A stretch of 64,000 nucleotides of DNA from Escherichia coli (GCF_024502345.1 NZ_JALDNN010000001.1); one strand, 5' to 3'; positions 1 to 19,746 are shown, counted from the stretch's first letter. The notes: generated by a model not told the origin, from the sequence alone. Made by a program: numbers and translations.

Positions 1-1
1 T

Positions 2-340
2 AAGGCAGATATCCGGACTTCTGAGCACAGCAGCAAGAAACCCGGCGTTGTTGGTACTGCCCTGACCAAACAGTGGGCGAAATACACGGGACGGGAAGCT
101 GTCCTGCTGCTGTTCCAGAATGGCGTGAATCGCATCAAGCGCTATCCATTCACGGGAGAACAGGCCCCCTTCGCCATTGGCGGTTAAGCGCAGGGCAAGA
201 CTCCCGGTTTCACCCTCTTTACCCAGCTCATACGTCAGCAGTCCTTTACTGTGGGGGCTGATTTTCTCGGCTTCCCCCATGTAGAACACGGTATAGCTTT
301 CGGTGACGGCGGCTTCGGTAGCGATTTTTTTCTTACTCAT
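2..340 (-). CDS. hypothetical protein, N-terminal 113 codons only; gene continues beyond window start
   Basis: Hand translation from ATG at 340..338 is open to position 2; start overlaps the stop of the upstream gene (ATGAGTAA). Not in ORF track because its stop lies outside the window. Confidence 0.45.
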   Translation of the reverse strand, partial: MSKKKIATEAAVTESYTVFYMGEAEKISPHSKGLLTYELGKEGETGSLALRLTANGEGGLFSREWIALDAIHAILEQQQDSFPSRVFRPLFGQGSTNNAGFLAAVLRSPDICL

Positions 341-713
341 GGTTCAGCGCCTCAATCAGGTTCCGGAGTTGAGTGATAACGGTCGTGTCCGGGAACACCA
401 GATAGATACCCTGTCCGTTATCGCAGACGATACCGAGCAGGAGATACCAGCCATCATCAAGTGCGGTGACGTATTCCGGGTTAGCCAGTGCCACTGCCAG
501 CAGCGGGTCTTCGGGGAGGGTGTCATCGTGGTTGAGATGCCAGAGCAGGGTTCCCGTTTCGTTCCAGAAGGTGGTAAACAGGTCGATATCATCGACAGGG
601 CCAAGGATTTCATTGCTGAGGGCCGCCAGTGCGGAGGCGGGCAGGTTGAGAAGGGGAAGACTGGTGGGGGTCGTGAGTTTAAACATGATTATCTCCATAA
701 ATGATTGATTCAT
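333..713 (-). CDS. hypothetical small acidic protein (126 aa; may start at an internal Met)
   Basis: Six-frame ORF; D/E-rich; stop overlaps start of the next minus-strand gene; AT-rich upstream region 714..1200. Confidence 0.45.
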   Translation of the reverse strand: MNQSFMEIIMFKLTTPTSLPLLNLPASALAALSNEILGPVDDIDLFTTFWNETGTLLWHLNHDDTLPEDPLLAVALANPEYVTALDDGWYLLLGIVCDNGQGIYLVFPDTTVITQLRNLIEALNHE

Positions 714-967
714 ATTGATAATATGTTTTCAAATGACTTTTAGTTACATTTTATTTACGTTGTTTGCTTTTTCTGGATTATGCCCTTAAATTTAGTTCTA
801 ACCTGGCATTAAATCCCGTTTTTTTTAGATTTTTAGAGTTTTATAAAGAAATTAGCATGTGCTGTTTTAACTGAAAATGAGAGAAGGCTTGCGCACAATT
901 GCTATTGATTTTCTTACTTATTTTCTCAATCACAAAACGCCTTAAATAGTTCAAAAAACAATCAACA

Positions 968-1038
968 CCCCATAATCGATATTATTTATGGGGAGAAACG
1001 ACGTTTAAGCCTGAAAGTGGGGGAGTGGCACTTTCAGG
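968..1038. other. two adjacent perfect hairpins (8-bp stem at 968..993, 10-bp stem at 1010..1038) upstream of integrase gene
   Basis: ccccataa/ttatgggg and cctgaaagtg/cactttcagg inverted repeats read directly; no flanking T-run. Confidence 0.3.
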
Positions 1039-1204
1039 AGATTAAGGAGGCAAACAGGCCTCTTTAACGCGTGTTTTTCTCACCAAAATGTCAGAGTCGG
1101 TGATTTGCACTTCAGTATTTCTGCCAATACTATTCGCTCCATGTGCTGGCCAGCATCTAACTCAATACCCTTAATCTGTATTAATTGAGCGAGATGTATG
1201 CATT

Positions 1205-2515
1205 ATGAAACCCGATAGTTCTTTAAACCAAATAACGCAGACAATGAAACGGAATGATGTTGATTCTGTGGATAGTCGCTTTTTTGAGTCAGCGCAAAAC
1301 ATGAAAACCAGCGTTGACGTTGAAGATTGCTGCGTTGAAGTGATGGTTCGACATCACAGCCCAAAGAATCAAAGAGAGGCATTCACTAAAGCTTTTTTTG
1401 ATGAGTGTAAAATCCGTGCAGTACAAACTGGCCGGACTATCGAAGCCAGCGATACAAAATGTACCGGGCTTAAGGCTATATTCCACTCATCCGGACGCAT
1501 TAAGTTTATTGTCCGCAAAAGTATTCGCGGAAAGAATGTTTACGTTGCAGTAGGAAGTTACCCTGAATTTTCCATTAATAACGCAAGGGAACATGCCTTT
1601 AAAATAATTCAGGAGCTTAAGGCTTCCGTTGAGACTTATGGTGAGCGTTTTCTTACTCACAGTAAAATGACGTTTAATGAGCTTGTGGATGAGTATGAGA
1701 AAAGCGTACTCAGCACGGGCGTTAAGCGTTCAGCTAACACCGATCTTTCTAAGATCCGTAAATACCTGCGCCCTCTTCTCGGTGCCAAAAAGCTGGCAGG
1801 TATGACGGAGGCAGATATTCTGAGCTATCTGCATAATCTCGATCTCAAGCCTGCCACCCGCAACCGCCATCTGGCGCTCATTAAAGCGGTGTTTACCAGG
1901 GCAATACGCATGGGATACATCAGCCGCTCTCCGGCGCTTTATATCAAAGCGCTGCCTGAAGTGACGTCAGATCGCCGTGCCATGGATGACTCCCAGCTTC
2001 AGCGCTGGATGGACGTCTGTGAGCGCTGGCGTAATGGTAAACCCGATCATGAAGCCCTTGCTCTTCTCATGTTCCTTGCCCTGACGGGGCTGCGTCTGGG
2101 GGAAACCCGTCACCTTCGTCTTGAAGATGTGGACTGGAGCCGCAAGGTTATCACCCTTCGCCATACCAAAAACGGCAAACTACGCCGTGTACCGGTATGT
2201 GATAAGGCTTTCGTTCTTCTGACAGAACAGCGTCAGCATCTGGGTGATGAAGGCTGGGTATTTCCGGGCAAGGGAACCGACAATCCGGTTGCTGAGCCGC
2301 GTCGCCTGCAAAAACGACTTTGTGAGGCTGCGGGTATTCCACCGTTCACCATCCATGAGATGCGTCATACCTTTGCGACAAAGCTCATTGAGAGCGGGGC
2401 CGACATTCACACCGTCAAAGACTTATTGGGTCACAGCACTATCAAAGTAACGGAGCTTTACTTGCACGCTTCCCCGGCGCGTTACCACGAAGTCGTTAAC
2501 CGGGCGATGGGGTAA
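1205..2515 (+). CDS. tyrosine recombinase / P4-type integrase (436 aa)
   Basis: C-terminal catalytic motif HxxR...Y (HTFATKLIESGADIHTVKDLLGHSTIKVTELYLH); N-terminal arm-binding-like segment. Confidence 0.85.
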   Translation: MKPDSSLNQITQTMKRNDVDSVDSRFFESAQNMKTSVDVEDCCVEVMVRHHSPKNQREAFTKAFFDECKIRAVQTGRTIEASDTKCTGLKAIFHSSGRIKFIVRKSIRGKNVYVAVGSYPEFSINNAREHAFKIIQELKASVETYGERFLTHSKMTFNELVDEYEKSVLSTGVKRSANTDLSKIRKYLRPLLGAKKLAGMTEADILSYLHNLDLKPATRNRHLALIKAVFTRAIRMGYISRSPALYIKALPEVTSDRRAMDDSQLQRWMDVCERWRNGKPDHEALALLMFLALTGLRLGETRHLRLEDVDWSRKVITLRHTKNGKLRRVPVCDKAFVLLTEQRQHLGDEGWVFPGKGTDNPVAEPRRLQKRLCEAAGIPPFTIHEMRHTFATKLIESGADIHTVKDLLGHSTIKVTELYLHASPARYHEVVNRAMG

Positions 2516-2584
2516 CAACCTTCACTCAACGGTATGGTTTTTAACTATGGTTCTGATGCACCCGTTTTCTGACGGTGGCGTAAT

Positions 2585-4513
2585 TTGATGGTAATACACA
2601 TGAATAAAAAAGTGACAACTAATGTTCCTAAGGTTTCCGGGATTAAGCGTATTCGCGCTTTTGCTGACCGCGATAAAAATTTCAACAAAATGTCGGAAGC
2701 AATTATCAGGCGTGCTGAAAACACTGAGGTCGGTGAAGATGATATCGCTTCACTCGGTATTGGTGATGGGCTGCCACGGCATTATGTGAATACGGCTAAT
2801 GGCCTTTTCTACATCGGTGGACAGAAACCTGTGCAGGTTTGCACCACGCCAGTTGTGCCTGTCGCCCTGTTTTGTGGAAAAGATAAGGAGTCCGGTCTTG
2901 GGATCAGCCTGATGACCGGTAACGGGCTGGGTAAGTATGTTAAGGCCCTGGTACGCTTTGAGGATATTGTTCAGAGCGGTGCTCAGGTAGTAGGCAAACT
3001 GGCAGATCGTGGATTTTGTGTTGGCTCCTCTCCACAGCAGTTTGCCCTTTTTGACCGTTTTCTTCAGCGCTGCCGGAGTTTACCGCTGCCTGTCTATCTG
3101 ATGGCAGATGCGATGGGATTCGTTTCGGAGGATATGGCCTTTTTACATGGTCATGAGCCCGTTGTGACCTCTCTGACCGGGTTTGATTATCTACTGCCGG
3201 GATTCCGCGTGCGTCCCGGACTGCACAAAGGTGGGGCCCTGGAGGAGTGGATTAACCTCATCCGGGAAAATGTCCATGGCTGGGCGCAGACCTTTGCACT
3301 GAGTGCGTCCTTTGCTTCGATGCTTCTGGTTCCTGCCGGTATGGATGTGGGCATGTTTCATTTTCACGGCGTATCCACCACCGGTAAAACGCTTCTCCTG
3401 ATGCTGGCTGCATCGGTCCATGGTGATGGCAGCGAGCCGGGTAGTGGGGGGAATGTAAATATTATTCGCTGGAATACCACGCCTAACGCGATGGAGCGCC
3501 TTCTCGCTGACTATTCCGGTCTGGTCGCCTGCGTCGATGAACTGGGTGCGAGTAATCATAAGCAACTTTCCTCACTGCTTTACAACATTACGTCAGGTAC
3601 GGCAAAAGAGCGCCTGAACCGTGGCCTGACGGCAGATGAGCCGTTTAAATGGCGCATGTTTATTCTCTCCACCGGTGAGATGTCAATCTCCGAAAAGCTG
3701 GCTGAACAGAAAGCCGTGTTACAGGGAGGGCAGGAGCACAGGGCCATCAGTATGGAACTGTTGCCTGAGGATGCTCAAAAACCGGATGAACCGGTATCAG
3801 AAACACGTGCCCGTGCAGATGCACTGAAGACGGGGCTGGCAGAGGCTTATGGTCATGCCGGGCCTGCATTTATCGGCAAACTGTTATCCGGGAAAAATAC
3901 GGCTGGCGGTCTTCGCACCTACGCAGAGTTTTCATCCTGGCTCCAGGAACAGACAGATGATTGCTGTAACGCACTGGAAGAGGCCCTGAGGGATGAGGGG
4001 CGTGATATTACCCGCGTTCAGCGGCGCGGACTGAAAAGATTTGCGCTGGTATGGCTGGCAGGAGAGAAGGCGCTGAAATATGGCCTTTTACCTTTCGAAA
4101 GCGATGCGGTGGCTGAATCCGTTATGTCCGCTGCACGACGCTGGCTGGATGATAACCAGAATCAGTATAACCCGGTGCGTAACATGCTGGAGGAGCTTCA
4201 GCTGACGCTGGTGACAAAAAGCAGCAGGCACTTTATCACCCTGCGTGACGAACATGCCCGATGCCCGGGAGATATGTGGGGATTCGTCCATTACAAAACC
4301 GGCGACTTCCTGATTTATGAATCGGTGTTTGAAAAGCTCTGTTCTGAAAAGGGACTTAAGACCGTTGATGTGGCCAGACCGTTAGAGCGTTCCGGTTATC
4401 TGCTTGGCGAAAGTGCCGGACACTATAAAAAAAGAGCGCTGAAGACGATGGCGCAGTCTTACTACCAGGTCAAAAAAGCGTTTCTGAAATGCAATGTGAT
4501 GACCGAATTTTAA
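2585..4513 (+). CDS. DUF927-like / P4 alpha-like SF3 helicase-domain protein (642 aa)
   Basis: Walker A GVSTTGKT and Walker B-like VACVDELG; immediately downstream of integrase; domain assignment from memory. Confidence 0.6.
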   Translation: MMVIHMNKKVTTNVPKVSGIKRIRAFADRDKNFNKMSEAIIRRAENTEVGEDDIASLGIGDGLPRHYVNTANGLFYIGGQKPVQVCTTPVVPVALFCGKDKESGLGISLMTGNGLGKYVKALVRFEDIVQSGAQVVGKLADRGFCVGSSPQQFALFDRFLQRCRSLPLPVYLMADAMGFVSEDMAFLHGHEPVVTSLTGFDYLLPGFRVRPGLHKGGALEEWINLIRENVHGWAQTFALSASFASMLLVPAGMDVGMFHFHGVSTTGKTLLLMLAASVHGDGSEPGSGGNVNIIRWNTTPNAMERLLADYSGLVACVDELGASNHKQLSSLLYNITSGTAKERLNRGLTADEPFKWRMFILSTGEMSISEKLAEQKAVLQGGQEHRAISMELLPEDAQKPDEPVSETRARADALKTGLAEAYGHAGPAFIGKLLSGKNTAGGLRTYAEFSSWLQEQTDDCCNALEEALRDEGRDITRVQRRGLKRFALVWLAGEKALKYGLLPFESDAVAESVMSAARRWLDDNQNQYNPVRNMLEELQLTLVTKSSRHFITLRDEHARCPGDMWGFVHYKTGDFLIYESVFEKLCSEKGLKTVDVARPLERSGYLLGESAGHYKKRALKTMAQSYYQVKKAFLKCNVMTEF

Positions 4514-4562
4514 CCCTGAATAAAACCATTTTGACTGAATAACAACGAATAGAAGGTGATGT

Positions 4563-4919
4563 ATGATTTTTGAATCAGACCAGTACTATGACGGTTTTCC
4601 TCACGCTATCAGCAGCGAAAATGAAGAAAAAACCTCATTCAATGATTACGCTCTGGTTAACACACTGGCGGAGTGCCTGTATCACGACATTTCTCGTGAA
4701 ATCTTCGATGGCAGTGAGCCGGCGCTCCGGGCCGTCATTGCCAACGGTCAGATTAAATTCCTGGCTCGTTATACGCTTAGAGGGGCCTGCTATTATGAAC
4801 CCCTCGGCACATTTCCACGTATGCCCGTTAACGTCGCGCGTGAACGAGCACGTGAACTCTATAACAGATTTGATGATCACCGGGTGCCGGATGAAGAATA
4901 TGGGGCCATCCCGTTCTGA
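4563..4919 (+). CDS. hypothetical protein (118 aa)
   Basis: ORF 50 bp downstream of the helicase-like gene on the same strand. Confidence 0.45.
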   Translation: MIFESDQYYDGFPHAISSENEEKTSFNDYALVNTLAECLYHDISREIFDGSEPALRAVIANGQIKFLARYTLRGACYYEPLGTFPRMPVNVARERARELYNRFDDHRVPDEEYGAIPF

Positions 4920-4925
4920 CTGATG

Positions 4926-4958
4926 GCTGAACAGTAAAAAAAAGCAGGGGCACTTGCC
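4926..4958. terminator. putative bidirectional terminator between convergent genes
   Basis: Imperfect hairpin gcagggg...cctctgc flanked by A-run and T-run. Confidence 0.35.
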
Positions 4959-4973
4959 TCTGCTTTTCTGTTA

Positions 4974-6158
4974 TCACAAGGACGGTAGCTGAGCCGTTAT
5001 CCTTTCCGCCAGTAACTGACTGGTGTTCTGTAAGCGCTGAGGATGAAGATGCGCATACCGTTGTGAAGACTGACTGCTGCGGTGCCCCAGTTGAGCCTGA
5101 ACGTCATACAGTGTTCCGCCGTAGGACACGATGAGGGCGGCAACCGAATGGCGGCAGGTATGAATACACACTTCTTTGTCGAAAATTCCCGCCCGACGAA
5201 CGATACGCTGAAAGGCTTTAACGGGGTTATTCAGCGGCATTCCTTGTTTTTTACCGATAAACAACCACGGATTTCCACGCTGTGTTGGCAGTGTTCTGAT
5301 TACGTCCATCGCCAGTGAATTAAGATGAACAATCCGTCCATAGCCATTCTTGGTTTCCGGGAGCCATAGGGTGCGTTTAACCGGGTCAACATGCTCCCAC
5401 TTAGCCAGACGCAGTTCATCACGACGAAGGCCGGTCAGTAACAGCAGTTTGACATAGCGGGCAGCTACGGGGCTGGTATCGTTATCGGCGGAGAGAAAAA
5501 TACGACGAATTTCGTCCTCGGTAAAATAACGCTGTCGGGCGTTGTTCTCCCTGAGTAGCTGTACCACCCTTGCCGGATGAACAGAGGTCATGCTTTGCCT
5601 TCCGGCCCATGTAAAGACGGCTTTAATGAGTACGATGACACGGTTACAGGTAGCCGCTGACAGGGAAGTACTTAACGTCTGCTGAAGGCGCAGAATGCTC
5701 GCTGGTGTGATATCGCTCAGCAGCCTCTGACCAATGGCGGGACGGATATGATCGCGGTAGCGCTGAACATCCTTTCCCCAACTGCGTTTAGCGGATTTTG
5801 CCCATGGCAGATAATGCTGATTAAAGAGTTCATCGAACGTCAGCTCCATTCTCTTGTTTTCACGCTCCTGCTTAGGGTCAGTGCCGGTGGCAAGGGAACG
5901 TTTGTGTTCTATGGCAATCTGACGAGCAAGATTGACGTCCACTTCAGGCCAGTGACCAATGGCGATGGCGCGTTTTCGTCCATGATAAAGGTAGCGTAGC
6001 AAAAACTTTTTACGACCTTCTCTTCTGCTGACCAGACACTTGAGGCCGGAAATCTCAGTGTCGCTGTATTCGGCATCGGTACTGCGTGCATCGGATGTGT
6101 TAGGGGGCAGGGATTTAATGAGCTGATTAGTAAAACGGAAGCGTTTGGGGGTGGACAT
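4974..6158 (-). CDS. P4-type tyrosine integrase (394 aa)
   Basis: Catalytic motif HTCRHSVAALIVSYGG...LGHRSSQSSQRYAH; arm-binding-like N-terminus; tRNA-proximal. Confidence 0.85.
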   Translation of the reverse strand: MSTPKRFRFTNQLIKSLPPNTSDARSTDAEYSDTEISGLKCLVSRREGRKKFLLRYLYHGRKRAIAIGHWPEVDVNLARQIAIEHKRSLATGTDPKQERENKRMELTFDELFNQHYLPWAKSAKRSWGKDVQRYRDHIRPAIGQRLLSDITPASILRLQQTLSTSLSAATCNRVIVLIKAVFTWAGRQSMTSVHPARVVQLLRENNARQRYFTEDEIRRIFLSADNDTSPVAARYVKLLLLTGLRRDELRLAKWEHVDPVKRTLWLPETKNGYGRIVHLNSLAMDVIRTLPTQRGNPWLFIGKKQGMPLNNPVKAFQRIVRRAGIFDKEVCIHTCRHSVAALIVSYGGTLYDVQAQLGHRSSQSSQRYAHLHPQRLQNTSQLLAERITAQLPSL

Positions 6159-6503
6159 ATAACCTCCTGTGACTGGTGTAAAGAACGTCAGGGTTGCCCC
6201 ATCCCCGGCACGGCGCTGTTAATGGCTGAGTTGATTTTCTGGTGTGGCTAAGGGAATGCTGGTGCCACATGGGATGAATGAAGACGAGAAATACAGCAAA
6301 AACAGGCGTTACGGTCTGCTTCTGGTCTTAAGGGGAAGATTGCCGTTGGGGAAGAGTTCACAGAAATAATATGTGTTTCAGTCGGGTATAATTACATGTG
6401 ATAAGGGCAAAGAGCGTGCTTTGCTAAAATTTGACATGTTGAAGTCCACTCTTTTTAACGATGTCGTTATGGACGACATGGCGAGTCTTGCTTAGATAAT
6501 TAA

Positions 6504-7091
6504 TCAAAATACTGTGACTTTGGACCCACGTTTACCACATTTCGAGCACTTGAGCCGAGTTTTAAGGTCTTCTAGAGTTACTCCCATTGCAACATACTGC
6601 TTAAGGTCGTTCAAAGTAAGGATTGTGGGGAGACGACAAAAAAATCCAGAGGCGCAACATACCAGCATCTCCGAGCCGTTTTTTAACCAGTCCTCAAGAT
6701 TATCGTGCGATCTCGTTAGTCGTTCGATATCCGCTCTCCACTGCTGGATTTCATTACCGTTCCAGTCGATATTTAGCTCGATTTGTTTGGCAACGAACCG
6801 GTGTTTACCTCTGTTAACTGTGGGTTCATAGTCCTTACGTTGATCTTTGATGAGATCAGCCTCATAGAGGAAATCATCGTTTTTGTTGTCGGTATAATCA
6901 AAAATTACCTTAATTAAATCAATATCAACGTTTTGTTTTTTGATGAATAAACCCTGTGTTCCGCTTCCGTTCAAGTCCCGGCTAAAGTTAATGTTGAGAT
7001 GGCGGCGGAGTGAGAAGAAATAGCTGTGGCCGTGCATAGCCAATGCAAGTCTGGCTATGTCATTGCAGTTGTAGGGTGTGTGTGTATCCAT
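6504..7091 (-). CDS. hypothetical protein (195 aa), AT-rich, C-terminal CxxC
   Basis: ORF between integrase and tRNA-Phe; low GC; ends CSKCGKRGSK. Confidence 0.45.
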   Translation of the reverse strand: MDTHTPYNCNDIARLALAMHGHSYFFSLRRHLNINFSRDLNGSGTQGLFIKKQNVDIDLIKVIFDYTDNKNDDFLYEADLIKDQRKDYEPTVNRGKHRFVAKQIELNIDWNGNEIQQWRADIERLTRSHDNLEDWLKNGSEMLVCCASGFFCRLPTILTLNDLKQYVAMGVTLEDLKTRLKCSKCGKRGSKVTVF

Positions 7092-7607
7092 GATGTTACC
7101 TTTAATTCATATTCGGTCGAGAGCGTCAGGAAACTATCCTAATATACCTTTTTTCTACACCAGTATTTGGATCAATTTTCATCCCTTTGGCCTGCTTCTT
7201 GTTGATTAACTCTCAGCGATGTTTGAAATAGGCCATCAGTGGTCAGAATCATTTTTTACTTCCACTTTTTGCTCAGATTTGACCCTAAGGTCTAAGTTCC
7301 AATACGTTTCGCTCAATTACTATCACCCCTGATAAATTATTCTATGATGACGTGGAGGGCGGGGGATTCAGGCAATGTTAAGAAATGAAAGGTTTAAATG
7401 CGAATATTACAGGTGGAGGAGGTGGTGGATACCCCCGACTGACAAGGGGAGTTGATGGCGCTGAGTTCACCCCCTTGCCTGAAGAGGAGTCTCCCCGGTC
7501 TTCCCCCGGGGGGGATGGCAGGTAATTTGTTGTTAAATAAAGTAAATTATGAAATCCCCCATTTCCCCCGTATTCTCTGCTTCATTATGAATAATCTTAG
7601 AGAAAGG

Positions 7608-7764
7608 AACCGTAAAGGACCGTAGAAAGACCGTAGCTGTGAGGTGAGGGAAGGCACATCAGAGGATGTTGAGGTGTCTAAAAGTAACGAACATCTGCAA
7701 AAATGGTGAAAAATCCAGCAAGAAAATAACGTGTTGCAACGACCAGAAATCTACCGTAGCTAAG
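7608..7764. repeat. four direct copies of accgta(g/a) near the tRNA-Phe 3' end; candidate integrase arm sites
   Basis: Copies at 7608, 7619, 7630 and 7753 read directly. Confidence 0.3.
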
Positions 7765-7805
7765 AAAGGAAAAAGCCCCGCTTTTCAGCGAGGCCTTATG
7801 AATAT

Positions 7806-7881
7806 TGGTGCCCGGACTCGGAATCGAACCAAGGACACGGGGATTTTCAATCCCCTGCTCTACCGACTGAGCTATCCGGGC
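7806..7881 (-). tRNA. pheV: tRNA-Phe (anticodon GAA)
   Basis: Reverse complement reads GCCCGGATAGCTCAGTCGGTAGAGCAGGGGATTGAAAATCCCCGTGTCCTTGGTTCGATTCCGAGTCCGGGCACCA, the canonical E. coli tRNA-Phe. Confidence 0.95.
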
Positions 7882-7986
7882 AACGGGGCGCATTAAACCT
7901 GATTCGCCTCGTCTCGTCAATCAAATTTCTTCAATTTACTGCAGACTGCACAATCTATCATCACTTTGCCGCTATTGCACGCATTG

Positions 7987-8694
7987 TCAGGCAAACCAGG
8001 CGGTCCAGGCGGCGGAAAGCGGCATTGCCAGAAGGAGTGCTGGAAGCATGTTGACCACCGGGAACATTTTAATGCCACAGATGCGTAATCCGGTTGCCAG
8101 CAGCAATAAACCGCCTACGGCGCTGAAGTCTGCCATCATCGACGGTGTGGTCAGCGGTAATATCAGCGCGGCAGCCCACGCCAGCGTTAACTGGATGATC
8201 AGTAATGGGATACTAATTACCGACACCGCAATACCCAGCGAGCAGGCGAAGATCATCGCCGTAAAGAAATCAAGAAATGACTTGGCGATTAAAATACTCG
8301 GATCGCCGGTCATCCCTTCGTTCATCGCCCCGAAGATCCCGGTGCCGCTGGCGCAAAACAGGACAATAATCGCGACATAATTCTGAATAAAAGATTCATG
8401 CGCTGGCTTCTTACGTGAGTGACGAAACAGATTTTGTGCTTTGGCGACTGCTGTATTGACACCTTTCTCCAGCAAACAAATTTCGCCAATTAGAGCGCCA
8501 AGTAGCGTAGCTAAAACCATCGCTGGAAGGTTGGCGCATTTCACAACCAGTAAAATACCAATCCCCAGCGATGCCAGACCAAAAATAGATGTCATGGAGA
8601 CGCGGATACGTTCCGGTAAGCGTTGGCTGAGCAGTGCGCCGAGAACGCCACCCAGTAAGACTGCACTAGCGTTGATAAAAGGGCCGATGACCAC
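7987..8694 (-). CDS. yqgA: DUF554 family inner membrane protein (235 aa)
   Basis: Hydrophobic 235-aa ORF between pheV and speC, as in K-12. Confidence 0.8.
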   Translation of the reverse strand: MVIGPFINASAVLLGGVLGALLSQRLPERIRVSMTSIFGLASLGIGILLVVKCANLPAMVLATLLGALIGEICLLEKGVNTAVAKAQNLFRHSRKKPAHESFIQNYVAIIVLFCASGTGIFGAMNEGMTGDPSILIAKSFLDFFTAMIFACSLGIAVSVISIPLLIIQLTLAWAAALILPLTTPSMMADFSAVGGLLLLATGLRICGIKMFPVVNMLPALLLAMPLSAAWTAWFA

Positions 8695-9091
8695 AAGAGT
8701 TCCTGTTAGCTGTATTGTTTGATTTTCTTATTATGAACTTTTTGCCTTGTTGATGGCTTGTCTGGTCGCAAAGTCCTGGCTTGCACGCTTTAGCGAAAGG
8801 TGCCATGATTGCGCGAATTTTCTCCTCTCTGTACGGAGTTTGCCCGATGCACGCCATCTCCTTACATTCTCTCGCTTATCGCCGTTTCGCGCGAAACGTT
8901 TCCCTTTCTATGTTACTGCTCATGCGGTGAAGTTAACGCACGCTCACTGCAGGACAACAGTAAAATCAGAGCGTTTCTGCTTTTACTGATGTCTGGCGGT
9001 CGGAGCTGGTGACCAGTTTGACCCATATCTCATGGGGCAGGGTTTTCCACCTTGTCCGGTATTCTTACTTCCCCGAAACGGGTTTGCGCTT

Positions 9092-11276: not shown

Positions 11277-12533
11277 TTAGTGGCTAACCGTCTGTGTGCC
11301 TGTCGGGACACGAACGTGTTTATATTTGAACATCGCCATGAACGCGAAGGCCAGAACCACGGAGTAACCAGCGAAAATCAACCATACGGTCTGCCAGTCG
11401 GTAATGCCGTTTTGGGTGTACATCTCAACAACTTTACCGCTCACGATGCCGCCGAGGATACAGCCGAAGCCGTTAGTCATCATCAGGAACATCCCTTGTG
11501 CACTGGCGCGAATTGCCGGGCTAACTTCTTTTTCGACAAACACCGAACCAGAGATGTTGAAGAAGTCGAATGCGCAACCGTAAACGATCATCGACAGTAC
11601 CAGCAGTACAGTACCGAACGGAGTCGGGTCGCCGTAAGCAAACAGCGCAAAACGCAGGATCCACGCCACAATACTGATCATCATTACGTTCTTAATACCG
11701 TAGCGGCTTAAGAAGAACGGGATGGTCAGAATGAACAGGGTTTCAGAGATCTGCGAAATCGACATGATGATTGACGCATGCTGCACAATAAAGCTGCTGG
11801 CAAACATCGGATCTTTGTCGAAGCTGTGCAGGAAGGTATTACCGAACATGTTGGTAATCTGCAGTTCCGCGCCCAGCAGCATTGAGAAGATAAAGAAGAT
11901 TGCCATACGCTTGTTTTTAAACAGCGCGAATGCATCGAGGCCCAGCAGGGTTGTCCAGCTCTGATTCGCTTGCTGTTTAGCAACCGGAATATGCGGCAGA
12001 GTCAGGGTAAACAGAACCAGAATGGCGGAAAGTGCTGCGCCAATATACAGCTGCATGTGGCTTAATTCGAAGCCAGACAGGCTCACCACCCACATTGCCA
12101 TGATAAAGCCGATGGTGCCCCAGATACGGATTGGCGGGAAGTCAGTAACGATATCCATCCCGGCATTTTGCAGGCGATAGTAAGAGATGGTGTTGATTAA
12201 CCCAAGCGTTGGCATATAAGCAAACGAGTTAATCAATATCACAAGGAACATCGCCTCCGGTGTCGTGACCTGTGCCGCCATGAACAGCGTGATAGCGCCA
12301 ATGGTGTGGCAAATGGCATATACCCATTTCGCACTTAACCATTTGTCGGCCACAATCCCCAGCAGCGCAGGCATAAAGACCGCTGCGATACCCAGTGAGC
12401 TATAAACTGCGCCAATAGAAGCACCGTCAAACTTCAGGGTAACAAACATATAGGAGCCGAGGGTCGTCAGCCAACTTCCCCACAGACAGAACTGCAGAAA
12501 AGAGAGGATTTTCAGCTGCAGCTTAAGATTCAT
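11277..12533 (-). CDS. nupG: nucleoside:H+ symporter (418 aa)
   Basis: Start MNLKLQLKILSFLQF at internal Met; length matches. Confidence 0.9.
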   Translation of the reverse strand: MNLKLQLKILSFLQFCLWGSWLTTLGSYMFVTLKFDGASIGAVYSSLGIAAVFMPALLGIVADKWLSAKWVYAICHTIGAITLFMAAQVTTPEAMFLVILINSFAYMPTLGLINTISYYRLQNAGMDIVTDFPPIRIWGTIGFIMAMWVVSLSGFELSHMQLYIGAALSAILVLFTLTLPHIPVAKQQANQSWTTLLGLDAFALFKNKRMAIFFIFSMLLGAELQITNMFGNTFLHSFDKDPMFASSFIVQHASIIMSISQISETLFILTIPFFLSRYGIKNVMMISIVAWILRFALFAYGDPTPFGTVLLVLSMIVYGCAFDFFNISGSVFVEKEVSPAIRASAQGMFLMMTNGFGCILGGIVSGKVVEMYTQNGITDWQTVWLIFAGYSVVLAFAFMAMFKYKHVRVPTGTQTVSH

Positions 12534-12734
12534 GTTAATTTCCTCACATCGTGATGCGGATGAGTGTTTGAAAAAGCACATTTGACCGTGCGAGATGATG
12601 GGATTCTATCAACTTCGCGGACTGGTTTTTTGTTACCTGTGGCAAATAATTGCAAACATTCCCAATTTGCAAAACGAAATTGTGATGTGGATAACATTTT
12701 TGCCCCTGAGTATCGTCAGGGGCGGTTAATGGAA

Positions 12735-13814
12735 TTATCGGCGGCGGTAGGATTTTTGCGCGGTATTCACTTTATAAAGATAACGGCGAGATTCCGCAGA
12801 GGGATGGCGGGTCGTCAGCGTCTGATAAACATCGCCCGGCGTCATGGTGTTAATAATATTGGCAGCCTGAATCTTATCATTCGAAAAGACTCGCAGCACG
12901 CTGCCTGCGCCGCCGTTATAGGCGGTGATGACGGCATAACGCCGCGATGTTGGGTTATCAATTCCGCCGAGATAAACATTGTTCAGCATCGCCAGATACG
13001 CGGTGCCGGTATCAATATTGCTGGCAGGATCAAACAAGAAACTGCGGCTCGGCGTGCCGGATTTCCCCTGCGAGCGGAACACATCTTTCCCGGCAGTATG
13101 TTGTACCACCTGCATTAATCCCAGCGCATCGGAACGGCTGACCGCATACGGGTTAAAGGAAGATTCGGTCTGCATAATTGCCAGAATCAGCGACTCATCA
13201 ACGCCATATTTCCGTGACGCCTGGCGGACCATGCCGAGATATTTGTGCGCACGTTTATCAAGGTGGTTCGGTACCATGTTAATGGTGACGCTGTAGATGA
13301 TACGCAGCCCGTTACTGCGGCTTTGCAGACGGTTTTTCAGCAGATAATCCGCGAAGTTGCTTGCGCGACCTTCCCAGCGAATCGGCTGCCCGGTGTTGTC
13401 CACCACCTGACCGTAAAGGAAAGGTTCTTTCGAACTCGTAATATCATCAACGTCGGAATAGAGATCGACCGAACTCGGATCGTCACCCATCAGCAACGTT
13501 TTGATAATTGCCCGGCGCAAATGCGCGGCAGGTTCTGTCCCGGCGATAGTTTCGATAGTAATCGTACCGTCATCGAAGTTGATGTGGCTGCGGGTCTGAT
13601 ATTGATCGGTGTATTTCACGTAGTCCTTAGGACCGGCGATCACCACCTCTTTGAATCCCCAGATGTTCTCAATATTGTGGGCAAATTGCCCCATCAGAAT
13701 ATCAAAACCGTTGGTATCTTTGACCCAGGCTTCGTTATAGGTATCGCCTTTTTTGGTCGTCGAACAGGAGATGAGCAACGGCGCAATCAAAGCCAGCGCG
13801 AGATATTTTTTCAT
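12735..13814 (-). CDS. mltC: membrane-bound lytic murein transglycosylase C (359 aa)
   Basis: Lipoprotein signal [18 protein letters not shown]; length and synteny. Confidence 0.9.
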
Positions 13815-18681: not shown

Positions 18682-19689
18682 GTGAAAAAGCAATGGATTG
18701 TTGGCACGGCACTGCTTATGTTGATGACTGGTAATGCCTGGGCAGATGGCGAACCGCCAACTGAAAATATCTTAAAAGATCAATTCAAAAAGCAGTATCA
18801 CGGCATTCTCAAGCTTGATGCTATCACCTTAAAAAATCTTGATGCTAAGGGTAATCAGGCCACCTGGTCAGCGGAAGGCGATGTCACTTCCAGTGACGAT
18901 CTCTATACCTGGGTCGGTCAGTTGGCAGATTACGAACTGCTCGAACAGACCTGGACGAAAGATAAACCGGTAAAATTCTCGGCGATGTTAACCAGTAAAG
19001 GAACGCCCGCGTCTGGCTGGTCGGTGAACTTTTACTCTTTTCAGGCGGCAGCCAGCGATCGTGGGCGGGTGGTCGACGATATCAAAACGAATAATAAATA
19101 TCTGATCGTGAATAGCGAAGATTTCAATTATCGCTTTAGTCAGCTTGAATCTGCGTTGAATACCCAGAAGAACTCGATTCCTGCGCTGGAAAAGGAAGTG
19201 AAAGCGCTTGATAAGCAAATGGTGGCGGCGCAGAAAGCAGCGGATGCATATTGGGGAAAAGATGCAAACGGTAAGCAAATGACCCGCGAAGAAGCCTTTA
19301 AAAAAATTCACCAACAGCGTGATGAGTTTAATAAACAGAACGATAGCGAGGCGTTCGCGGTTAAATATGACAAAGAGGTTTATCAACCGGCGATTGCGGC
19401 ATGTCATAAACAGAGTGAAGAGTGTTATGAAGTGCCGATTCAGCAGAAACGAGATTTCGATATCAACGAACAACGGCGACAGACTTTTCTGCAATCACAA
19501 AAACTCAGCCGTAAATTGCAGGATGACTGGGTAACGCTTGAAAAAGGGCAATATCCGTTAACGATGAAAGTTTCAGAAATAAACAGTAAAAAAGTCGCGA
19601 TTTTGATGAAAATTGACGATATCAACCAGGCTAATGAACGCTGGAAAAAAGATACCGAACAACTGCGGCGCAATGGGGTGATTAAGTAA
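18682..19689 (+). CDS. yggM: DUF1202 periplasmic protein (335 aa)
   Basis: Signal peptide MKKQWIVGTALLMLMTGNAWA; synteny. Confidence 0.8.
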   Translation: MKKQWIVGTALLMLMTGNAWADGEPPTENILKDQFKKQYHGILKLDAITLKNLDAKGNQATWSAEGDVTSSDDLYTWVGQLADYELLEQTWTKDKPVKFSAMLTSKGTPASGWSVNFYSFQAAASDRGRVVDDIKTNNKYLIVNSEDFNYRFSQLESALNTQKNSIPALEKEVKALDKQMVAAQKAADAYWGKDANGKQMTREEAFKKIHQQRDEFNKQNDSEAFAVKYDKEVYQPAIAACHKQSEECYEVPIQQKRDFDINEQRRQTFLQSQKLSRKLQDDWVTLEKGQYPLTMKVSEINSKKVAILMKIDDINQANERWKKDTEQLRRNGVIK

Positions 19690-19705
19690 CTCATGTTAGG
19701 TACCT

Positions 19706-19746
19706 TTGCCGGATAATATAAAAAGTTATCCGGCAAATTATTTTTT
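19706..19746. terminator. bidirectional terminator between yggM and the TRAP permease gene
   Basis: ttgccggataa / ttatccggcaa stem, then T-run. Confidence 0.6.

Follow-up and report, generated by a model that had tools for sequence, protein, structure and literature searches.

What kind of element do three closely spaced, co-oriented genes make up when they encode a tyrosine recombinase, a helicase and a small protein, and lie within a few kilobases of a tRNA gene? Such a run is found at positions 1205–4919 of a 64,000-nucleotide stretch of Escherichia coli DNA (GCF_024502345.1 NZ_JALDNN010000001.1; hereafter the window, read on one strand and numbered from its first letter). An initial annotation had taken the run for a minimal integrative or P4-like satellite element, with a non-canonical phage-interference locus as a second possibility. 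The analysis reported here points instead to a larger unit, in which positions 727–4936 form the variable cassette of recombinase and replication genes in an integrative island some 22 kb long. The backbone of this island is like the core of the pipolins, the position of the pipolin polymerase piPolB is taken by an MCM-like helicase, and this helicase would replicate the island after excision. We put the probability of this reading at roughly 0.6.

The cassette and its helicase

The features of the cassette are as follows.

727–1204: control region and left cassette edge; 478 bp, AT-rich, divergent
1205–2515, + strand: int2, the second tyrosine recombinase; 436 amino acids (open reading frame call)
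2600–4513, + strand: helicase, predicted MCM-like AAA+ protein with DUF927; the longest open reading frame, from TTG 2585, has 642 amino acids
4563–4919, + strand: arm-only protein, a free-standing arm-type DNA-binding domain; 118 amino acids
4936–4967, both strands: bidirectional intrinsic terminator between the convergent cassette and the island integrase gene int1; right cassette edge

The open reading frame calls (1205–2515, 2585–4513 and 4563–4919) agree exactly with the three genes of the initial annotation. Its first gap, of 69 nt between int2 and the helicase, is correct, and the second, between the helicase and the arm-only gene, measures 49 nt and not 50. The hairpin that it placed at the end of the run is real: a terminator scan and the sequence give an 8-bp G+C-rich stem (4944–4963) between an A-run (4936–4943) and a T-run (4964–4967), inside the 54-nt gap ahead of the int1 stop at 4974. 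Because the stem stands between the two runs and faces the convergent int1 stop, it could terminate transcription in both directions.

The large protein consists of a β-rich N-terminal domain, an ATPase core and a C-terminal winged helix–turn–helix (HTH) domain. Pfam matches it to DUF927 (1e-33) and to HTH_56, the Cch HTH (5e-4), and gives no Toprim, PriCT or Prim-Pol domain, in agreement with the earlier remark that no primase domain is evident. The Walker A and B motifs noted earlier are also present, and GKT (residues 267–269), DE (residues 318–319) and R386 are invariant across 26 homologues. The length of 642 residues holds for the longest reading frame; the start is probably ATG 2600, which gives 637 residues, since the RefSeq call in the near-identical genome NZ_AP027822 agrees and M6 is nearly invariant in the alignment.

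An AF2 model of the protein was built from the 26 homologues (pLDDT 86). With Foldseek the model matches Cch of the staphylococcal cassette chromosome SCCmec (5dgk; E of 4e-23, target TM of 0.67) and the Rep protein of the staphylococcal pathogenicity island (SaPI) SaPIbov1 (8tch; 5e-19) over about 590 columns, and the next structural matches are MCM subunits. The same two PDB entries are found by sequence (5dgk at 1e-14 and 8tch at 7e-12). On the evidence of the model the protein belongs with the MCM-like self-loading initiator helicases, its activity being predicted. A primase domain is never part of the Cch and SaPI-Rep proteins, so that neither a truncated P4 α-like protein nor an SF3 helicase, the two labels initially applied, is supported. 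The match to the NCBIfam model for Cch1 (NF047345; 2e-22) reaches 79.3 bits against a cutoff of 700 and covers only residues 213–454; the protein is a distant relative and not a Cch1 orthologue. Mean pairwise identity is highest in the ATPase core, at 57%, and lowest in the two end domains, the N-terminal one and the winged HTH, at 37–38%, as would be expected if DNA recognition were the diverging trait.

Nor does the protein look like an ordinary phage primase among prophage neighbours. Its best phage and plasmid matches are partial and at most 30% identical, and no P4-labelled record is present among the 12 of 17 phage matches listed at E ≤ 1e-3. Relatives that are fused to Toprim/PriCT are 850–1040 amino acids long and only 25–30% identical to the helicase. 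Distant DUF927 proteins occur on small non-mobilizable plasmids, which is consistent with a role in replication.

A defence island integrated at pheV

The surroundings of the three genes are described by a second set of features.

1–713, − strand: start of the conserved island backbone; N-terminal part of a 143-amino-acid orphan, and a 117/126-amino-acid orphan
333–713, − strand: the 117/126-amino-acid orphan
4974–6158, − strand: int1, the conserved att-proximal tyrosine integrase of the island; 394 amino acids
6504–7091, − strand: 195-amino-acid gene; occupies the variable slot that separates int1 from attL
7806–7828: att core of the island, the 3' 23 nt of tRNA-Phe
7806–7881, − strand: tRNA-Phe (pheV), found by ARAGORN and Rfam; adjoins yqgA

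The convergent int1 gene and the tRNA-Phe gene were missing from the earlier description. Together with the yqgA neighbourhood they show that the three genes belong to an island integrated at a tRNA gene. The island extends beyond the start of the window, which cuts the 143-amino-acid orphan; the remaining backbone and the defence cargo lie upstream. The whole island was read from NZ_AP027822 (L001; related loci are numbered in the same way below), which is 98.1% identical over 9 kb and whose 117-amino-acid protein is 100% identical to the corresponding stretch of the window. In this genome the 23-nt 3' end of tRNA-Phe is perfectly repeated 21.8 kb away, beside yghD. From the tRNA the order is the 195-amino-acid gene, int1, the three cassette genes (read from the other strand), a series of small genes and the cargo. 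The series of small genes comprises the 117- and 143-amino-acid orphans, DUF2787, LRAT, a DeoR-like gene, a 127-amino-acid orphan, DUF3944, an HTH/WYL regulator and a 103-amino-acid orphan, and the cargo a DUF262 protein, a type I restriction–modification (R-M) system into which an AAA ATPase gene is inserted, and a '5-fold beta-flower' protein. In PADLOC the DUF3944 protein is assigned to JukA (2e-72), the DUF262 protein to HEC-05 (4e-230) and the 237-amino-acid regulator to WYL. With JukA, HEC-05 and type I R-M genes between the repeats, the island is a defence island, and the variable defence cargo that the initial annotation anticipated is indeed nearby. JukA appears to be core rather than cargo in the island family. 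At 12340–13615 and 9215–11083 of L001, island DNA upstream of the window start, lie the JukA homologue, beside the 127-amino-acid orphan, and the HEC-05 and type I R-M cargo.

The island boundaries bear directly on the proposed minimal element. The perfect tRNA-Phe repeat bounds 21.8 kb in the near-identical genome and not the three genes, around which there are no att repeats; a search of the window for the tRNA 3' end, allowing up to three mismatches, returned only the tRNA itself and no internal att site. The window is chromosomal E. coli DNA; matches to its positions 1–9000, at 96–98% identity over at least 80% of the length, were obtained in 43 complete E. coli genomes. Of 5,426 complete E. 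coli genomes, 130 carry the backbone flanks and 68 the allele of the window over at least 80% of its length. Sister islands are found at pheU, next to dsbD-cutA-dcuA.

Two integrases in a single island might suggest that a second island was once added in tandem at tRNA-Phe and that the cassette is what remains of it, decaying and now without function; there are variants with deletions (L016 and E. coli H49) or a split helicase (L015) that would fit such decay. However, int2 has the wrong orientation for tandem accretion, and the window contains no internal tRNA-derived repeat. Further, the three genes are under purifying selection, with ratios of nonsynonymous to synonymous substitution (dN/dS) well below 1 in comparisons with enough differences (0.04–0.18 for int2, 0.36–0.49 for the helicase and 0.27 for the 118-amino-acid gene), and their reading frames are intact in alleles at 35–65% identity in several genera. 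We regard a functionless remnant as extremely unlikely.

A backbone shared with pipolins

Gammaproteobacterial pipolins are integrative islands that encode piPolB, a family-B DNA polymerase that works without a primer, and carry defence cargo (Mateo-Caceres et al., 2024; PMC11551731). Their core consists of piPolB, an att-proximal IntSXT-type integrase, an IntP2-type integrase followed by an excisionase, DUF2787, a WYL protein and orphans (PMC11551731). The same paper names 'piPolB-less, pipolin-like islands' in passing, as rare and differently arranged, and leaves them undescribed. Two piPolB-bearing elements were compared with the island, one from Vibrio proteolyticus (L014) and one from Yersinia enterocolitica (L019; at tRNA-Leu, next to pgsA-uvrC), with the following protein identities.

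int1: Yersinia pipolin 47%, Vibrio pipolin 33%
117-amino-acid orphan: Yersinia pipolin 33% (Y_105), Vibrio pipolin 27% (V_127)
143-amino-acid orphan: Yersinia pipolin 52%, Vibrio pipolin 30%
DUF2787: Yersinia pipolin 43%, Vibrio pipolin 38%
DeoR-like: Yersinia pipolin 41%, Vibrio pipolin no match

The order and orientation of these backbone genes are identical in the island and in both pipolins, with int1 and the first orphans taken from the window and the others from L001. L001 also shows the perfect 23-bp tRNA-Phe repeats, 21.8 kb apart, and the defence cargo that are pipolin traits. Judged by sequence, int1 is the orthologue of the pipolin att-proximal integrase. The layout is Int-127-142-DUF2787 ... 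piPolB in L014, and in L019 an att-proximal Int-83-105-185-DUF2787-75 with a separate operon of a second Int (376 amino acids)-HTH_17-139-piPolB. A more distant member of the present family, L011, whose helicase is 37% identical, has the operon Int-HTH_17-DUF927, parallel to the pipolin Int-HTH_17-piPolB, and the HTH_17 proteins of L011 and the Yersinia pipolin are 44% identical. For piPolB (PF03175) itself, tblastn with the Yersinia and Vibrio queries against the window and L001 gave a best E of 0.08, outside the island, and no polymerase is annotated in L001. A pipolin-like backbone combined with a different replication gene makes this a sister family and not a pipolin.

A DUF2787 paralogue of E. 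coli (P0056, in L013) belongs to a different island with RadC, a metallophosphatase, AlpA, a 1281-amino-acid protein and a reverse transcriptase. DUF2787 is thus common to several unrelated-looking mobile islands.

Exchange of the cassette between islands

The cassette is set off from the backbone by its divergence. Positions 1–726 are 94–97% identical to islands that have a divergent cassette; the break in homology at 726/727 recurs in L005, L008, L022, L026 and L028, and homology resumes at about 4907–4942. Against the DNA of L005 (Enterobacter), positions 1–726 align at 94% and 4937–6398 at 89%, and 727–4936 aligns only in patches, at 65–72%. The corresponding proteins are 87–99.6% identical in the backbone, 96% for int1, 56% for int2 and 46% for the helicase, and the arm-only gene is absent. 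Against L026 (Pseudocitrobacter) and L028 (E. sichuanensis), the backbone proteins are 95–100% identical, int1 99.5–100%, int2 82%, the helicase 47% and 38%, respectively, and the arm-only protein 35%. More generally, int1 is 82–100% identical across islands whose helicases are 38–59% identical. A helicase at 38–47% identity between islands with 95–100% identical backbones marks the cassette as a hypervariable exchangeable unit. To this extent the initial description is borne out: integrase and replication genes, all on the same strand, make up a module of an integrative element that has sharp edges and is exchanged as a unit.

Smaller replacements are also seen. In E. coli strain AHM9C68I the replacement is confined to the control region together with the leader and arm domain of int2 (its first 172 codons). 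The recurrent breakpoints (726/727, 1382, 1722, ~2510, ~4907–4937 and ~6400) are gene or domain boundaries. The 26-sequence helicase alignment was too divergent for a genome scan, for which nine closer sequences were used. The helicase allele of the window is found in Enterobacter, Buttiauxella and Kluyvera at 95–96% identity, and a 1.6-kb contig of Mixta tenebrionis (L025) holds a helicase fragment, residues 34–580, that is 100% identical to it; the latter match reflects either very recent transfer or assembly contamination. The distribution of the allele points to recent spread across genera.

Sharp and recurrent edges at 726/727 and ~4907–4937 would also be expected if the three genes were an autonomous minimal integrative or P4-like satellite nested in the island, with int2 moving the cassette and the helicase replicating it. 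Alleles are swapped between otherwise identical islands, L018 has exchanged the int2 arm domain jointly with the DNA upstream, and in L011 and the pipolins, where int1 directly precedes the orphans, the cassette is elsewhere and differently oriented. However, a search for direct or inverted repeats flanking the cassette gave only chance-level short matches, and a joined-flank query representing the empty site had no contiguous match in the 130 E. coli genomes with the backbone, in which the flanks are never adjacent. Breakpoints also fall within int2 and between int2 and the helicase, which fits homologous recombination better than site-specific insertion, and P4 hallmarks such as a C4/cI RNA or a primase domain are not seen. 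A nested autonomous element is on this evidence very unlikely.

The same hypervariability might have arisen from an arms race, in which the helicase and arm-only protein interfere with phages or plasmids, the helicase being, for example, triggered by invading DNA or acting on it. The extreme allelic divergence inside a near-identical backbone and the position of the pair in a defence island, beside JukA, HEC-05 and R-M genes, are compatible with this proposal, as are the conserved DUF927 genes of mobilizable genomic islands (MGIs), which are unneeded for mobilisation. At E ≤ 0.01, however, PADLOC returns no family for int2, the helicase, the 118-amino-acid protein, int1 or the 195-amino-acid protein, and the three cassette proteins contain no effector domain (nuclease, toxin or NADase). 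The closest structures to the helicase are bona fide replication initiators, the gene sits at the replication-gene position of homologous islands, and divergence is concentrated at the DNA-recognition ends, as expected for origin specificity. With its positive support limited to hypervariability and neighbourhood, a defence function for the cassette itself seems rather unlikely.

The second recombinase, the arm-only protein and the control region

The int2 protein contains an arm-binding domain (about residues 80–139), a SAM-like core-binding domain and a catalytic domain. Its Pfam matches are Phage_integrase (8e-32), Arm-DNA-bind_3 (1e-4) and Phage_int_M (1e-4), it matches PHROG 1 at 1e-66, and its identity to int1 is 31%. 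Divergent alleles keep both the ATG at 1205 and the GGAG upstream of it. RefSeq under-calls the gene in NZ_AP027822, at 282 amino acids only; this is a start-site choice, as the 436-amino-acid frame is intact there. The recombination breakpoints at 1382 and 1722 flank the arm domain.

The 118-amino-acid protein, at first taken for an orphan, belongs to the arm-type DNA-binding domain family. Pfam gives a weak match to Arm-DNA-bind_3 (2e-3) and the protein is 36% identical to residues 80–131 of int2. The top three PDB matches of its AF2 model (pLDDT 81) are the arm domains of the P4-like integrases 3jtz, 3rmp and 3ju0, each with a probability of 1.0; the root-mean-square deviation is 1.4–1.5 Å over 50–60 columns for 3jtz and 3rmp and 6.5 Å over 73 columns for 3ju0. 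The protein and the int2 arm domain are paralogues, the former having one additional helix at its N terminus. HMMER, run in full against 1.8 billion representatives, recovered eight free-standing proteins of 113–139 amino acids at 34–88% identity and no full-length integrase. RefSeq labels the small protein in NZ_AP027822 as though it were an integrase fragment. Wherever context is visible the gene lies between the helicase stop and the int1 stop. It is absent from some alleles (L005 and L008) and is retained in L016, in which int2 and most of the helicase are deleted.

The control region (727–1204) would hold promoters or an operator and possibly the origin, the latter role being inference only. 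GC content is 24–33% over 700–950. About 120 nt upstream of int2, positions 968–1085 of the + strand form three consecutive hairpins with a T-run (minimum free energy −44.7 kcal/mol, z = −3.8). The stems are CCCCATAA/TTATGGGG, a perfect 10-bp CCTGAAAGTG/CACTTTCAGG and a terminator-like TTAAGGAGGC/GCCTCTTTAA followed by the T-run. The element is kept in the window and L016 alleles and partly in L002, and an Rfam scan of positions 1–8000 found only the tRNA, with no match for the hairpins. They could belong to an origin, or act as a leader or attenuator or as a small RNA. Some 50 bp ahead of the int2 start, positions 1143–1156 hold a perfect 12-bp palindrome, TGCTGGCCAGCA (GTGCTGGCCAGCA for 1143–1155). 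It is kept in three otherwise divergent control-region alleles (window/L001/L021/L024/L016, L002-4 and L008/9/27), is absent from those of L005, L015, L018, L022, L026 and L028, and is probably an operator for a dimeric regulator.

A 21-nt inverted repeat with 86% complementarity joins the int2 ribosome-binding region (1179–1199, TATTAATTGAGCGAGATGTAT) to the non-coding DNA between the 195-amino-acid gene and tRNA-Phe (7302–7322, ATACGTTTCGCTCAATTACTA). It may be due to chance or may be a shared protein-binding site such as an arm-type site.

Proposed function of the cassette

If the cassette serves replication of the island, its parts can be assigned as follows. From its position, conservation and orthology, int1 would excise and integrate the island at the 23-bp tRNA core. 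The helicase would assemble on an origin within the co-varying cassette, probably in the AT-rich region, and unwinding would let host enzymes copy the excised circle; for this step the ATPase motifs and the fold are observed, and the rest follows the analogy with SaPI Rep and Cch. Most speculatively, int2 and the arm-only protein would act on the element's own DNA, where they might confer another specificity of recombination, resolve multimers, or regulate either directionality or origin binding. The cassette would be replaced through recombination between conserved flanks, yielding alleles of divergent specificity; the mosaic is observed, and the selective reason is proposed from it.

A more general proposal can be put forward tentatively. 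The replication slot of these islands would hold either piPolB or an MCM-like helicase, and episomal replication after excision would be the function for which the slot is selected. The helicase, arm-only gene and control region would then form a replicon-specificity or incompatibility determinant, diversified by cassette exchange in the manner of phage immunity regions, and the arm-only protein would be a new integrase-derived accessory factor in directionality or origin binding.

Several observations weigh against replication of the island as the role of the cassette. The window does not reach the far end of the island, whose structure is therefore that seen in a genome 98% identical. SCCmec has CcPol-MP and many SaPIs have Pri, but here no gene for a partner primase or polymerase lies close by. 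Natural variants without the helicase persist (L016 and E. coli H49), and in related mobilizable islands of the MGIVchHai6 class a conserved DUF927 gene was dispensable for excision and mobilisation (PMC7449626). As int2 is equally similar to int1 and to the second integrase of the Yersinia pipolin, its orthology with the latter is not established. In the control region, searches for iterons or an origin by sequence gave only chance-level short matches, and the hairpins show no convincing covariation, the alleles being either near-identical or unalignable and L002 breaking pairs with no compensation.

Other features of the window

The 195-amino-acid gene next to the tRNA has a C-terminal CxxC and matches phrog_30162 (4e-75), a family of unknown function; neither PADLOC nor NCBIfam gave a match. 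In Enterobacter and Citrobacter relatives (L005 and L008) SIR2-like gene pairs occupy this slot next to attL, and L002 has only a 71-amino-acid open reading frame there. The slot (6159–7805) looks like a second defence-cargo hotspot of the island.

At 19000–23000 the GC content is 0.39–0.47, compared with about 0.52 in neighbouring DNA, and AT skew is strongly positive at 19–21 kb. This stretch may be another horizontally acquired segment.

Comparison with known systems

Literature on GI-pheV concerns classical intP4 pathogenicity islands and not the pheV/pheU island family described here. Like P4, the island is integrated at a tRNA gene, encodes an integrase with a P4-type arm domain and an AAA+ helicase whose C terminus is a DNA-binding domain, and has defence cargo close by. 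It differs in that P4 α has a primase domain, which the helicase here lacks, and in that the nearest folds are Cch, Rep and MCM. No cI/C4 RNA was found by Rfam in positions 1–8000, and none of psu, delta, sid or epsilon is annotated in L001, in which no dedicated profile search for them was made. Phage-inducible chromosomal islands and SaPIs are arranged as int, divergent regulators, xis, pri/rep and ori, and then genes that interfere with packaging (terS, cpm, ppi). The present island has a Rep-like helicase and an AT-rich, divergent control region; the annotation of L001 contains no packaging gene, and PHROGs gives the 195- and 126-amino-acid open reading frames no known function.

In MGIs, which IncC or SXT/R391 elements mobilise, a DUF927 gene is conserved next to xis/rdfM, and type I R-M genes are frequent cargo (PMC7449626, PMC4958241). 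Like orf86 of MGIVchHai6 and cds8 of MGIVflInd1, the helicase gene encodes a DUF927 protein in the range of 550–650 amino acids, in a recombination-module operon of a small R-M-carrying island. As the annotated island (L001) has no transfer genes of its own, it might be an island of this type, with its DUF927 gene beside a directionality factor and induced by a helper conjugative element. In the MGIs, however, the DUF927 gene lies between an HTH regulator and xis under AcaCD/SetCD control, and here it lies between an integrase gene and the arm-only gene, with no HTH_17 excisionase beside it. The AcaCD core pattern occurs at chance level, with four matches where 3.8 are expected and none of them in the control region. 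The backbone genes correspond to those of pipolins and not to the MGI gene sets described. Membership of the MGIs is highly doubtful.

The proteins closest to the helicase in structure are SCCmec Cch and SaPI Rep, which have the same arrangement of N-terminal domain, AAA+ core with Walker A and B motifs, and C-terminal winged HTH (DUF927 and HTH_56), match it over its full length, and are likewise encoded by integrative islands beside one or more recombinases. Sequence identity is only 16–18% and the host here is Gram-negative. SCCmec uses serine Ccr recombinases in place of the tyrosine recombinase found here, and the present island has neither an adjacent primase (CcPol-MP or Pri) nor a single-stranded DNA-binding protein (SSB). 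The present results extend helicases of the Cch/SaPI-Rep type from staphylococcal islands to a defined enterobacterial island family in several genera.

The closest likeness of the island as a whole is to the pipolins. Both have an att-proximal integrase followed by two orphans, DUF2787 and a DeoR-like small gene, as well as a WYL regulator; both place a further tyrosine recombinase gene in one operon with the replication gene; and both combine tRNA integration with direct repeats and a bimodular layout with exchangeable defence cargo such as type I R-M. They differ in that a Cch-like helicase and not piPolB is in the replication-gene position, in the target (tRNA-Phe here and tRNA-Leu for the Yersinia pipolin L019), in the int2–helicase operon, which is inverted here and lies between int1 and the orphans, and in the absence from this allele of the HTH_17 excisionase and the presence of the arm-only gene. 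In the literature searched we found no description of the replication-gene swap, the bounded allelic cassette or the free-standing arm domain. The occurrence of the same backbone with a non-homologous replication protein argues that the slot serves replication of the element, provides a natural comparison set for the uncertain role of piPolB and bears on how pipolins, which have no transfer genes of their own, propagate. While the component families are already known, the swap, the bounded cassette and the free-standing arm domain make the role of the pipolin replication slot testable.

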